A stretch of DNA of 62,784 bases, counting the filler, from Rhabdomonas costata (lineage: Eukaryota): NCBI GenBank assembly GCA_019059605.1. It is 35 parts of 35 records of this genome, joined end to end, with 100 filler letters (N's around TTAATTAATTAA, not from the genome) between each part and the next. Parts side by side here need not be neighbours in the genome. Positions count along the whole stretch, not along the records: positions 57,497 to 59,192 come from JAHMHO010010518.1; 34 more parts are not named here. One strand, 5' to 3'. The position numbers and the translations under genes were made by a program. The notes beneath the pieces were generated by a model that was not told the DNA's origin, ran no database searches, and saw nothing but the letters and a program-made list of their open reading frames with translations. The first letter of the stretch is position 1. Each line of letters begins with the position of its first letter. Of this stretch, positions 55,127 to 60,004 are shown piece after piece.

Positions 55127-56329
55127 GTCTGTCAACCGCCATAGCGCAGTTTGTGATTTTTTTCTGCACGTTCGATCCCCGGCAAGAAATTTTTTGACTT
55201 GCTCTGGATTCTTTCTGTTCATTTTTGCATTTTTCCCTTTTTGGGTCAAGAATGCAAGAAGAACCAATAAATTGAGACGAACGTTGCAAAGTGGCAACAA
55301 GCGAGGCAAGTGATAGAATCACAGAGGACATCATTATCATCATGGGAGAATGGAGCTTTGACCCGGATGTCTCGCGGAGCGCAGCGTCCCTGATCCTGTT
55401 TTTTTTCCGGGGTCCCAAAAAAGTCTCCCGAAGACGGGAGATGCCTTTGGTGTACAAAAATCTTTCCTCCGCGGCACCAGCTTGAGCAATCGAGTGCATG
55501 ACGTACAATGGCGCCGCTATTTATTTTATTTGGCATACCTTCGGAATCCCTAAGGGAGCCTGACCAAGGTACCACCACAGGAACACTTGTCCTTGTCANN
55601 NNNNNNNNNNNNNNNNNNNNNNNNNNNNNNNNNNNNNNNNNNTTAATTAATTAANNNNNNNNNNNNNNNNNNNNNNNNNNNNNNNNNNNNNNNNNNNNTG
55701 TGGGGTGTGGGGTGGTGGTCCCCGGGGCTGTGGCGGAGCCCTTGTCGCAGCGGACGTGGGTGCAGCTCGCGTTTGGGCTTCCCCGGACCTGCTCCGCGCT
55801 TGCCGCGGCGGGCGAGGACCCCTCTCTGCCCGTGAGCGAACCCTCGTCCCACTCTCACCTCACTTGAGTTTACACGCAAGATTTTTCTCCCTTGCAGATA
55901 CTCTTTCATCGGGCAAGCACACGGGTTTCGTTTACGCACAGACAGGCTCATGCCCATTCCCACGGTGGTCAATATCGGCCCTTCGCTCTCCGCGAAGCTT
56001 GTTGGGAGCGGGGGGGGGGGGGCGAACTGTTTACAGCGCTGAGCGTCGGGGAAGCTTAGGCCGTGTGTTTGGCAACAGCGATGTCCTTTTCCAGTTTTAC
56101 TGTTTCATGTTTCCGAAGCAGTGCCAAACAACCATCCTTTATAAAAAAGCTTGCCCAAATTGATTCGCACCCATCGCGCCTACATGAGCGCGTAACCACA
56201 CACACACACCTATGGTGCGTGGCTGTGGAACCGTTGTAGCTCGAAGATTTGGTTGGTGGGTCTCCACCACCAGGCCCTCATTGGGCCCTCACTTTGGGCA
56301 CGGATGTAACCTCTCTTTTCTTGTTTCAG

Positions 56330-56896
56330 GTTCCGCGGTCTTGGGGTCAGCAGCTGAGGTTCGCGGAGGGCCCCGAGGCCTTCCCCGTGGAGTTCGACAT
56401 TGCCGACCCTGAGACACGCCGCGAGATGGTCTACCGCCGCAACGACGGCTCCACCCTCAGCACCCGCCTGAACGCCCTGCTGTGCCTGGGCCAGCCTGGC
56501 ACCACCACAGTTTGCTTCGAGGTCCTCAACAACAGCGTTTCTGGTCTTACCTTTGGGGTGGCTCCCGTGAGCACCTGCGGGGACCTGCGAAAATTCACGG
56601 GGAACAGCCCTGGTGAGGGGTCCTGGTCTTCCGGGCTGTGCCTCTCATTCTCACGCGGTAAGACCTTCCAAAACGGCACTCGCACAGATATGGCCACAAA
56701 GGTGAAGTCCGGGGATCGGGTGGAGGTTCGAGTGGACCGCAGTGACCCTAGTGACCCCACAGGGGGCACTGTGGCCTTCGCGGTGAACGGGGCGGTGGTG
56801 TGGGGCGTGGAGCCCGTGGTGCGCCTGGGCTTCACAGAGGACGCCTTTGTGATCGTGTCGATGTATCGCAGGGACAACGCCGTGCGTATTGTTTGA
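56330..56896 (+). CDS. Terminal exon encoding a SPRY/B30.2-like beta-sandwich domain
   Basis: ttcag acceptor to TGA. Contains FEV..LTFGVA..KSGDRVEVRVD..GTVAFAVNG..VSMY..VRIV, a SPRY-like strand pattern. Confidence 0.6.
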   Translation, partial: VPRSWGQQLRFAEGPEAFPVEFDIADPETRREMVYRRNDGSTLSTRLNALLCLGQPGTTTVCFEVLNNSVSGLTFGVAPVSTCGDLRKFTGNSPGEGSWSSGLCLSFSRGKTFQNGTRTDMATKVKSGDRVEVRVDRSDPSDPTGGTVAFAVNGAVVWGVEPVVRLGFTEDAFVIVSMYRRDNAVRIV

Positions 56897-57206
56897 GGGG
56901 CGCATAGACCATGCACCCGGTTAGGTGGACCGAGTGCGCCTGTTCTATCCCCTCTGACCCCAGAGAGAGCACTAGATCGGCCCCTCGCCCGTCTGACATA
57001 TCATCCCTATTTTCCCCTCCAATGTCGCGTTCTGTCTGCTTTCCACCCACCGCAAACCACTTCTGTGCTCTTTCTTCACTGCCCTTCATCTGTTTTAGGC
57101 CATACCACATCACATACTCCTTGTCTCGCTGATTCCCCGCTTACCTCTCTGCTCGCCTATGTTCCCCCACTGCCCTGGGCGACTGCACCCACTATGGGTC
57201 GCTGGA

Positions 57207-57387
57207 GGCCTTTGCTTTCCTCCTGTTTCCAGTCCCTGCCCCTCCCACACACACATACACATTCCTCCAACCTCCACCATTTCCCTGTACCTGTTGCTTG
57301 CGGGTACAGGGAAATGGTGGAGGTTGGAGGAATGTGTATGTGTGTGTGGGAGGGGCAGGGACTGGAAACAGGAGGAAAGCAAAGGCC
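57207..57387. repeat. 85-bp perfect inverted repeat, 11-nt loop, at contig end
   Basis: 57207-57291 is the reverse complement of 57303-57387. Confidence 0.92.
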
Positions 57388-57505
57388 ACCAACAACNNNN
57401 NNNNNNNNNNNNNNNNNNNNNNNNNNNNNNNNNNNNNNNNTTAATTAATTAANNNNNNNNNNNNNNNNNNNNNNNNNNNNNNNNNNNNNNNNNNNNTCCT
57501 TGTAG

Positions 57506-59110
57506 AAGCTCTACGGTGACAACAACTTTGTGGTGTGGCCGGCCTTCTCGTCGACCACACTGGACCGTGAGGTAGCGCAGAACTTCTTCAGGAGTGCGAC
57601 CGGGGATACCGAGGGCACGATGTTTATGATCATCCCTTTGCCCGAGGGCCAGAGCCGAGGCCACGAAATCGCCCCGCTGTCCGCTCTACCCAAAGAACGA
57701 GTATCACTCAATACCTCACACGCATACACGCACGCTCACTTTGATCCCAAATGGGGTGGCTCGCGCATGTCGAACAAAATCAAGCGTGCCTTCAAGCCTG
57801 ATTCGCGGATTGGTTGTATTTATGACTTCTAACACCTCTGCAGAGCATTTTGCATTCACTCATTTCACTTTGTGCGGATTTTGTGTTGACGCCATCTTAT
57901 GGATTTCGGGTTCACTTGCCCAAAAGCCGCTGTACTTTTCTTTCGGGTGGAGAGCAGAGGTGTTGTCAAAATGGAAGAGTACCCCATATAACATTGATGC
58001 AGAACAACGGCTCCCTTCTCAATGGTCCCAAGCGTATGTATCGATGTATGTGTATGTATTGATTCTTTACATTGTACAGGAACCCAACCGCAGTTTGGTT
58101 TTATGTACGGTGGTCCAGCTTAATGTTGGCCGAATCCCCCTGATTCGCTTATTAGTCGAATAGAAGGACTGGGTTTCATGGACCCCTCCACACACACACA
58201 TCCTCGCTCCACTCTGCACGCCGTTTCCGTTTGCAGGAAGTTTTGTACGAGATCAATACCTATTTTAAGGTCAACCGCAGGCTTGGTCCGGCGACGAAGA
58301 AGTTCTTTGAGCAGGAGCTGGGGTACTGCCTGGACCGCGTCGAGGTACTGCGGTGCTAGTTTAGGGAGCTGCTGCTGCTGCTGCTGCTGCCTGGGTATGG
58401 TTGGTCGGATAATTCTTGTCCTTTTATTCACTCACTGACTGGTTGCTTATTGACCCAACTGGGCAAACAGGTGCCCGATCTTCTGTGTCTTTGCTGACTT
58501 CCCTGTGACACAGTGCCTCGAGATGTGCGTTTCCTCTGGTTCTTATTGATGTGTTTGGTGAGGGGAATCCCGCGAGAGCCCCCACGTGGCGTTTTATCGG
58601 CTTCGGGTCAAATGAAATGAACCAAATGTACCTCACCACTGTGTAGCATTATTTTTGTAGCGCTTGCCGTTCTGCATGCGGTACGAAGTCTTTGCTTTTT
58701 TGGGTTGATTGCTTTGGGATTTCCGTGAGCTGTTGGAAAAGAGCACAAGAAGAGCTGTTTGGAGTATGTCGGGATTGCACCTGTGTTTGTTATCCATCGG
58801 GTAGGTCTACGAGCTTGCCGAGGTGCCGGAGGCTGTGGCGCTGAAGGAGACAGCGAAGCTGCAAGAGAACAATGGGGTGGCCCTTCTGGGGCACATCAAG
58901 AAGGGCGCCGTGGAGGAGGTGGAGAAGCTGCTGGGCGAGCCCGTAGACCTGAACACCCGCGACGGAGTTGATGGCAAGACCCCTTTGATCTGCGCCATTG
59001 AGAAGGGGCTGCCCGATGTCGCTGTGAAGCTGATTCAGAGCAAGGCCGACGTAAACGCCGCGGACAAGGACAAGAAGACTCCCTTGATGTACGCTGCGGA
59101 GCGCAGCGAG
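57506..59110 (+). CDS. Mono-ADP-ribosyltransferase (R-S-E/ARTC clade) domain followed by ankyrin repeats, three internal exons
   Basis: Phase-0 exons 57506-57700, 58237-58344, 58805-59110: VVWPAFSSTTLDREVAQNF..GTMFMI..IAPLSALPKER|EVLYEINTYFKV..LDRVE|VYELAEV..DGKTPLICA..ADVNAADKDKKTPLMYAA. Confidence 0.82.
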
Positions 59111-60004
59111 GTGTGCTATGATGTGGGATTGGCGACGGTTCTGGCGATAATTGCCGTTTTCCTTGGGCGTCAGAACCGTCGCCCACCCACACNNNNNNNN
59201 NNNNNNNNNNNNNNNNNNNNNNNNNNNNNNNNNNNNTTAATTAATTAANNNNNNNNNNNNNNNNNNNNNNNNNNNNNNNNNNNNNNNNNNNNGGGGTGGG
59301 GTGTTTTCGGGGTTATGCGCACCTGCAGCGACACCCGAAGGGGTTTGGGGCCCAGCAGCCTAACCAGCCTAACCAGCCTGCCAGCACAGATTCCTGTCTT
59401 ATTGTTTAATTTGTTAAACAGTTTGAAACCTCCGTTGTTAAGTTGGGAAAACACAGCCATTCACCTGCAACACGGTGCCCATGGTGCTCGTCTTCTCTGT
59501 GAACCCAAGGTCATTCCATTCCACTCCGGTACATTCCAAAGCGCTTCTCCCATATGGAGTCTCTTCAACCCTCACAAAAACCACCGGACCCCGCATGCAC
59601 ACTGAGCTGGGTGTAAACACTGGTGCGGATACTGTCAGACACCGAAATCGGCTCCAATCCACAGTCACCGTTAACCACACTAGTCTCGATAAGGCATTAG
59701 ATTGAAGGTAACTCTGGCCGCACCCCAACCAGATCTTGCCCTGTGGAACATGGGAGCCAGCAGGTGCCTGGTTGGGGAGATATGTTGCCTTCCTTCTTTG
59801 ACTTCTTTGAAGTGTTCTGTGGTTTTTTTTCGCGTTTGTGTGTGTTTGACATTCATTGCCTGAAGATGACCGGAGTCTCGAGCAGTCGAGAGAGTCGAGA
59901 GATGATGGCTGAGAAATAACTAACTCTCTCCCACAAACACGGAACATTCTTCTGTCGCTCCGTGGCTCCTTGGCCCCAAATGCACACGTACAAAAAAAAG
60001 CAAC

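Follow-up and report, generated by a model that had tools for sequence, protein, structure and literature searches.

ADP-ribosyltransferases (ARTs) of the R-S-E type, among them iota toxin, C3 and ART2.2, hold nicotinamide adenine dinucleotide (NAD+) by means of an arginine and an S-T-S motif, and use the second glutamate of the ARTT loop for catalysis. Where a glutamate instead of a glutamine stands two residues before the catalytic glutamate, the acceptor is arginine; ExE is the arginine-type motif, and HopU1, Tre1, ART2.2 and ExoS/T are arginine-directed enzymes. To our knowledge, the characterised eukaryotic R-S-E enzymes are the vertebrate ecto-enzymes, and the writers of arginine ADP-ribosylation inside eukaryotic cells are poorly understood. 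Ankyrin repeats and an ADP-ribosyltransferase also share one polypeptide in tankyrase (PARP5a/b), where an H-Y-E PARP domain lies C-terminal to the repeats and the product is poly-ADP-ribose. Here, we describe part of a probable split gene from the euglenid Rhabdomonas costata (GenBank assembly GCA_019059605.1) in which an R-S-E ART domain precedes ankyrin repeats. The window, by which we mean the whole 62,784-nucleotide stretch of DNA that was analysed, consists of 35 contigs of 1693-1700 bp joined through N...TTAATTAATTAA...N spacers, in which TTAATTAATTAA is a stop cassette; the entire ART-ankyrin fragment sits on one 1696-bp contig (57497-59192). Our findings support the reading that this contig encodes the closing part of an R-S-E ART domain (its C-terminal half, beginning with the S-T-S strand) and then the first ankyrin repeats.

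Gene model and catalytic motifs

An earlier interpretation of the DNA alone (the original prediction) had proposed three phase-0 exons sharing one frame, with an intron dividing the catalytic motif. The three predicted exons do form a single frame of 203 codons, bounded by GT and AG at both introns, and their lengths place every junction in phase 0 (Table 1). When exon 1 was used as a query against proteins of 115-2000 aa, a single match was obtained, the 661-aa EukProt protein RCo016120 (P0005 in our protein library), with 72% identity. In a tblastn comparison of this protein with the window, residues 414-480, 477-514 and 514-614 matched exons 1, 2 and 3 collinearly, with E values of 1e-24, 4e-14 and 8e-36, and with 79% and 69% identity for exons 2 and 3. 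The alignment is contiguous over both junctions, with no residue gained or lost, and the spliced fragment is identical to RCo016120 at 149 of its 203 positions (73%).

A family profile also favoured the spliced product. We built a profile (A1) from 52 ART-domain relatives, which scored exons 1 and 2 together at 98.9 bits and all three exons at 115.2 bits, compared with 60.8 bits for exon 1 alone, 59.1 bits for read-through into the intron and 58.5 bits for exon 1 joined directly to exon 3. Eighteen of 20 shuffled controls reached the hmmsearch list, all at -0.5 bits or lower, and the other two were unlisted. Part of the profile score reflects near-identity, since A1 includes the close relatives RCo016120 and P0007. 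The GC content at third codon positions is 0.75-0.82 in the exons versus an overall GC content of 0.47-0.49 in the introns, and about 0.5 for the whole window. As stated in the R. costata genome paper (PMC8219788), every completely detected intron of this organism has GT/AG borders.

The residues expected of an R-S-E enzyme can be found in the predicted order. FSSTT, the S-T-S motif of strand 2, lies at 57545-57559 in exon 1, ahead of the E-x-E as proposed, and its serine columns show no variation or a conservation of at least 90%. The E-x-E reads E-R-E and is indeed interrupted by intron 1, with E (57695-57697) and R (57698-57700) closing exon 1 and the catalytic E (58237-58239) opening exon 2. 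Both glutamate columns are invariant in 10/10 full-length relatives and are retained in the window. Across the 52-row alignment A1, the arginine, both serines and both glutamates are each at least 90% conserved, and when the spliced window fragment is set against the 10-row full-length alignment it agrees with the family at 10 of the 11 invariant columns that it covers and at all eight of the near-invariant ones. The YRG arginine (R404 in RCo016120) is likewise invariant in 10/10 full-length relatives and lies 9-10 residues ahead of the window's aligned start. Because the YRG of the relatives precedes the residues that align with the window, the catalytic arginine is most likely encoded upstream of the contig, which is where the original prediction had placed it. 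The upstream exons, which are off the contig, would encode a zinc-finger-like part, described below, and the N-terminal half of the ART domain, YRG arginine included. An in-frame TAG immediately before exon 1 doubles as the acceptor ...TTGTAG.

ART fold, ankyrin repeats and full-length relatives

In Pfam, RCo016120 matches the ART family PF01129 with 33.9 bits (cut-off 22.3; residues 320-491) and then Ank_2 with 67.5 bits (residues 546-633), in agreement with the proposal of an R-S-E-type ART followed by ankyrin repeats in one protein. Among PDB sequences, its residues 296-520 best matched the Vis toxin (4xzj; E 1.4e-5), with YRG, S-T-S and E-x-E aligned; the PDB name of this entry states that it is an arginine-specific toxin. 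We modelled the same residues with AlphaFold using the 52-row alignment, and obtained a predicted local distance difference test (pLDDT) score of 91.6 and a predicted template modelling (pTM) score of 0.86. The fold comparison was thus made on RCo016120, which is 73% identical to the window fragment. A Foldseek search of this model against the PDB returned 135 matches at E <= 0.001, with Vis at the top (1.2e-12), and the matches listed were all R-S-E ADP-ribosyltransferases. Pairwise comparison in VIA-align gave Z scores of 18.4 for HopU1 (root-mean-square deviation 3.1, 198 residues aligned), 18.3 for Tre1 and 17.2 for rat ART2.2 (2.9, 182 aligned), followed by XopAI (16.8), ExoS (16.6), Vis (15.1), SpvB (14.7), C3 (13.9), iota Ia (13.4) and VIP2 (13.2), with C2-I within 13-15. 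The ART fold on which the original prediction depended is therefore present, as far as the predicted structure of a close relative can tell.

Exon 3 exceeded the Pfam cut-offs for Ank_2 (43.5 bits, cut-off 27.3), Ank (38.5 and 21.1), Ank_5 (34.5 and 27) and Ank_4 (31.1 and 22.7), and contains two complete ankyrin repeats and the beginning of a third, in keeping with the claim of at least two. The last beta-strand of the ART domain (model residues 217-224) is made up of the final two residues of exon 2 and the first residues of exon 3, and the top solved ARTs all align through model residue 225 in VIA-align. Since the ART fold is completed by exon 3, which also encodes the ankyrin repeats, the two domains belong to one gene, which removes the case, named in advance as fatal to the original prediction, of ART and ankyrin exons from separate genes. 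The rise in profile score on adding exon 3 (98.9 to 115.2 bits) points the same way, and the ART-then-ankyrin order is continuous in RCo016120, RCo017662 (P0156) and P0007.

RCo017662 (842 aa) aligns with RCo016120 from end to end (E 4e-108) and with the window fragment at 47% identity over 203 residues. These two relatives share an N-terminal zinc-finger-like motif, C-x2-4-C ... H-x3-5-H, which is found upstream of the ART domain in 9/9 of the relatives in the 10-row alignment that have this region, although the proteins bearing it are only 24-49% identical; C148 and H161 of RCo016120 are at least 90% conserved. At about residues 140-165 of RCo016120 the motif has an "ITSD" core, which can also be seen in RCo017662, P0008, P0006, P0010, P0011, P0027, P0032 and P0043. 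In the full-length model of RCo016120 (mean pLDDT 71.6), residues 121-160 reach a pLDDT of 80-88 and form a beta-hairpin and a short helix at the motif; the first 110 residues are mostly of low confidence with one long helix, and the ART and ankyrin parts are confident. RCo016120 had no match to Pfam zinc-finger families at E <= 0.1, so that the term "zinc-finger-like" goes back to the motif and the model only. The region could be a hitherto undescribed module that goes along with this ART subfamily.

The original prediction also held the enzyme to be intracellular, which a crude test on two full-length relatives supports. A simple hydropathy scan of RCo016120 and RCo017662 revealed no membrane-like segment and no hydrophobic N-terminus; both N-termini are hydrophilic, and the maximum 19-residue Kyte-Doolittle means were 1.31 and 1.25, never reaching 1.6.

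These features set the locus apart from each of the described systems. The vertebrate ARTC enzymes (ART1, ART2.2, ART5) resemble the relatives in belonging to PF01129 and in having the R-S-E triad, ExE and, for ART2.2, a closely similar fold. Unlike the window's relatives, which have a zinc-finger-like motif before the ART domain, ankyrin repeats after it and no hydrophobic N-terminus, the ARTCs are without repeat domains. As tabulated in PMC7955679, the motif of human ART5 is "ERE", the same as in the window, and the ARTCs are glycosylphosphatidylinositol-anchored or secreted ecto-enzymes. The bacterial arginine-specific toxins and effectors (Vis, HopU1, Tre1, ExoS/T, SpvB and the iota Ia/C2-I/VIP2 group) have the same YRG / S-T-S / ExE layout and a similar fold (Z 13-18), but are secreted or injected, whereas the window gene is eukaryotic, with spliceosomal introns and an ankyrin fusion. 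In the binary toxins (C2, iota, VIP2) the ART fold is duplicated and binding resides in a separate component, while RCo016120, RCo017662 and P0007 each have one ART stretch, and fold similarity to Ia and VIP2 (Z 13.2-13.4) is below that to the single-domain enzymes. Tankyrase is alike in joining ankyrin repeats and an ADP-ribosyltransferase; the window gene differs from it in its R-S-E motifs and in placing the ART domain N-terminal to the repeats, and no PARP family was among the Pfam matches of RCo016120, RCo017662 or the window exons. The contrast with tankyrase drawn in the original prediction is thereby borne out.

The coordinates of the gene model are given in Table 1. The frame after exon 3 stays open up to the contig end at 59192, and similarity to RCo016120 ends at 59107. 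Just past the putative donor at 59111 there is a 21-nt imperfect inverted repeat (59126-59146 / 59168-59188; 86% complementary, arms 21 nt apart), which may be an intron stem, a fold-back artefact or a chance occurrence. A short (CTG)n microsatellite lies within intron 2 at 58369-58390.

Table 1. Predicted features of the contig bearing the ART-ankyrin fragment, in window positions.
Feature	Position	Strand	Description
Upstream intron, last 9 bases	57497..57505	+	Ends in acceptor TTGTAG; contig begins here
Exon 1	57506..57700	+	65 codons, 195 nt; ART strands, FSSTT, first two E-x-E residues; 72% to RCo016120
Intron 1	57701..58236	+	GT..AG, 536 nt, phase 0; interrupts E-x-E; 5, 1 and 6 stops in the three frames
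Exon 2	58237..58344	+	36 codons, 108 nt; catalytic second Glu, strands, helix, first half of last ART strand
Intron 2	58345..58804	+	GT..AG, 460 nt, phase 0; falls within last ART beta-strand; stops in all three frames
Exon 3	58805..59110	+	102 codons, 306 nt; second half of last ART strand, linker helix, ankyrin repeats
Ank_2 (Pfam)	58895..59104	+	Exon 3 residues 31-100
Ank (Pfam)	58970..59068	+	Exon 3 residues 56-88
3' remainder	59111..59192	+	GT at 59111; start of intron 3 or continued coding

The genome paper describes the R. costata assembly as 143,763 contigs with an N50 of 1194 bp, a longest contig of 8093 bp and a GC content of 51.6%, obtained from reads of an amplified sample, and its protein set as predicted from the transcriptome with Transdecoder (PMC8219788). 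The spliced-leader motif given there has no match in the window, a result that says little for a stretch of 62 kb. The 35 contigs of the window are mutually unrelated and the assembly is apparently listed by size, so the adjacency of contigs carries no linkage. On the contig at 55699-57396, a 94-nt inverted repeat (57198-57396; 97% complementary, 11 nt between the arms) terminates exactly at the contig end. The same contig contains an open reading frame (ORF) on the + strand at 56240-56896, with 218 codons ending in a stop and followed by a C/T-rich stretch, which is probably the last exon of another gene. We considered this ORF as the SPRY tail of an ART-ANK-SPRY gene, as in P0027 and P0032, and rejected it: it had no significant blastp match to the ART-ANK-SPRY relatives (best E 0.15, to P0140) and no Pfam match at E <= 0.001.

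Family breadth and domain partners

The original prediction suggested that the protein might be one of an expanded family, and such a family, with ankyrin and leucine-rich repeat (LRR) partners, is supported at the level of the databases. At E <= 0.001, the ART domain of RCo016120 matched 1040 representatives in the protein library; the count falls to 135 at E <= 1e-10 and to 5 at E <= 1e-30. Two batches of these hits were scanned against Pfam. The first contained 50 of the 54 hits ranked after the query (P0007-P0060, leaving out P0024, P0047, P0055 and P0058), of which 48 carried PF01129 and nine carried ankyrin repeats; the other partners were LRR (4), tandem ART (6), SPRY (2), SAM (2), WW (1), PAS (1) and UEV (1). 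The second took in all 39 hits of 400-1310 aa in P0061-P0155, leaving out six of more than 1500 aa as well as the shorter ones, and is biased toward long proteins because the shorter hits were omitted. PF01129 was found in 37 of these 39 and ankyrin in 10, and the partners included RCC1, Kelch, EF-hand, WW, LRR, protein kinase, Sel1, DEAD-helicase and a bacterial repeat. Altogether, ankyrin repeats occur in 19/89 scanned relatives and LRR in 5/89. The ART domain precedes the repeats, as in the window, in 15 of the 19 ankyrin bearers and follows them in three, with repeats on both sides in one; in two of the 19 (P0018 and P0102) the ART domain was detected by phmmer only.

A profile search of longer proteins added RCo017662 and the 1392-aa Diplonema papillatum protein DIPPA_26634 (P0160), both with ART and then ankyrin, and the same order can be seen in P0006, from a 1.29-Mb ENA contig. 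Like the window gene, RCo016120, RCo017662 and DIPPA_26634 combine a PF01129 ART domain with subsequent ankyrin repeats; none has been characterised and none is identical to the window copy. DIPPA_26634 is much longer than the other two and shares only 28% identity with the query domain. In the ESM Atlas, the domain adjoins eukaryotic PF01129 clusters, for which Haptophyta and Rotifera are the commonest labels.

Other arrangements of the domain were observed. Two or three tandem ART domains are present in P0009, P0012, P0013, P0025, P0029, P0035 and P0091, and the ART domain is joined to a protein kinase in P0100 and P0152, to a DEAD-box helicase in P0138, to RCC1 in P0066 and P0115, and to Kelch in P0077. 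The same domain is carried by P0157, a 1254-aa JGI "phage-related protein (TIGR01555 family)" with PF06381, and in P0117 (957 aa) it stands next to Listeria-Bacteroides repeats; its occurrence in these two proteins indicates that the subfamily is not confined to eukaryotes.

The ART-ankyrin protein type is uncharacterised but widespread among protists, and is not a one-off. Our literature search, with supplements outside its scope, found no paper on a protist R-S-E ART fused to ankyrin, and the review by Aravind et al. (2015) may list such architectures; neither "ADP-ribos" nor "ankyrin" appears in the main text of the article on the R. costata genome (PMC8219788). The architecture is plainly already present, unnamed, in public protein sets, would not surprise a specialist and is not claimed here as unpublished.

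Proposed function and alternative readings

On the combined evidence, we consider it probable that the contig is a fragment of a nuclear euglenid gene with spliceosomal introns, whose encoded protein has a zinc-finger-like motif followed by an R-S-E ART domain (PF01129) and ankyrin repeats, in that order. This protein would most likely act within the cell as a mono-ADP-ribosyltransferase directed at arginine, with the repeats aiming it. The ART domain would bind NAD+ via the upstream arginine and the S-T-S motif. The second glutamate of E-R-E would catalyse the transfer of a single ADP-ribose, the first would steer the transfer onto arginine side chains, and the C-terminal ankyrin repeats would select or tether the protein substrate. 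We place the enzyme inside the cell because its full-length relatives are without a signal peptide or membrane segment. The combination of an R-S-E mechanism with best matches to arginine-directed enzymes is what leads us to expect an intracellular arginine mono-ADP-ribosyltransferase.

Several points weigh against this interpretation. The activity, arginine specificity, localisation and role of the repeats are all inferred from other R-S-E enzymes, and the splice junctions of this copy are predicted ones. The catalytic arginine is not on the contig, and an otherwise invariant glycine (G418 in RCo016120) is asparagine in the window. When exons 1 and 2 were scanned singly against Pfam, as pieces of 65 and 36 residues, there was no match at E <= 10, so that the case for PF01129 membership is made through the relatives and through a profile in which they are included. 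Finally, the best database protein is only 72-73% identical, so the transcriptome-derived set may lack this copy, or the copy may stem from a different species. Judging by the name prefix, the RCo set would be the transcriptome-derived R. costata proteome; if that species label holds, the locus adds a third paralogue to RCo016120 and RCo017662.

It is possible, though we think it unlikely, that the protein is mainly an NAD+-consuming effector, either an NAD+ glycohydrolase or a cell-damaging ART, restrained by its repeats and serving as the output arm of an ankyrin- or LRR-type repeat-sensor protein in defence or conflict. NAD+ hydrolysis is a further activity of some R-S-E ARTs, ART2.2 among them. 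The fusion of the same ART domain to so many binding or sensor modules (ankyrin in 19/89 and LRR in 5/89, besides SPRY, Kelch, RCC1, Sel1, WW, SAM, PAS, EF-hand, kinase and DEAD helicase) would suit such a role, as would the presence of several paralogues, RCo016120 and RCo017662, under one species label. However, sequence does not separate a hydrolase from a transferase, and Pfam scans of the closest relatives revealed no NTPase or death-type domain.

The shortfall in identity to any database protein raises the question of whether this copy has fallen silent or begun to decay into a pseudogene, with a paralogous ART-ankyrin gene as the expressed one. No protein of 115-2000 aa matched the copy itself, its invariant glycine has become asparagine, and parts of the gene lie beyond the contig both upstream and downstream. 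The 203 open codons and intact GT-AG borders make this rather improbable, as do the high third-position GC content (0.75-0.82) and the retention of 10/11 invariant and 8/8 near-invariant columns, including S-T-S and both glutamates; the protein search, too, covered only the range of 115-2000 aa.

Some R-S-E relatives, namely the pierisin/scabin-type enzymes and RhsP2, modify nucleic acid, and the N-terminal zinc-finger-like motif could in principle guide the enzyme to such a target instead of to protein. The conservation of C-x2-4-C ... H-x3-5-H in 9/9 relatives with that region and its prediction as a beta-hairpin and helix (pLDDT 80-88, residues 121-160) would fit this reading, and an RNA-targeting ART is described in PMC12340436. 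The motif is not on the contig, though, and it has no Pfam zinc-finger match in RCo016120 at E <= 0.1. We hold nucleic-acid modification to be very unlikely, in that the best sequence and fold matches are the protein-arginine enzymes Vis, HopU1, Tre1, ART2.2 and ExoS, and an ExE motif goes with arginine as the acceptor.

It is extremely improbable that the two domains stem from different genes, or that the contig is chimeric or a bacterial contaminant. The assembly is very fragmented, and the neighbouring contig terminates in a 94-nt fold-back resembling an amplification or assembly artefact, but the ART fold ends within exon 3, the exon that also carries the repeats; the same gapless order recurs in the independent proteins RCo016120, RCo017662 and P0007, and spliceosomal GT-AG introns exclude a bacterial origin.

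As seen from the locus and its relatives, apparently cytosolic R-S-E ARTs with ankyrin fusions are encoded by euglenids and diplonemids, and public proteomes contain many other binding domains joined to this catalytic module. A broader idea, which we regard as unlikely, is that euglenozoans and many other protists, whose proteins make up the list of 1040 matches, possess an endogenous cytosolic arginine-ADP-ribosylation system, with toxin-type R-S-E writers combining the zinc-finger-like module and interchangeable binding domains (ANK, LRR, SPRY, Kelch and others); some of these enzymes could act as sensor-coupled, NAD+-using immune effectors following a logic like that of TIR or NLR systems. 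For genome annotation, the locus exemplifies multidomain genes, with catalytic motifs divided by introns, that escape notice when fragmented euglenid assemblies of this kind are read by ORFs. RCo016120, RCo017662 and DIPPA_26634 provide concrete proteins in which the activity and substrates of such enzymes could be tested.

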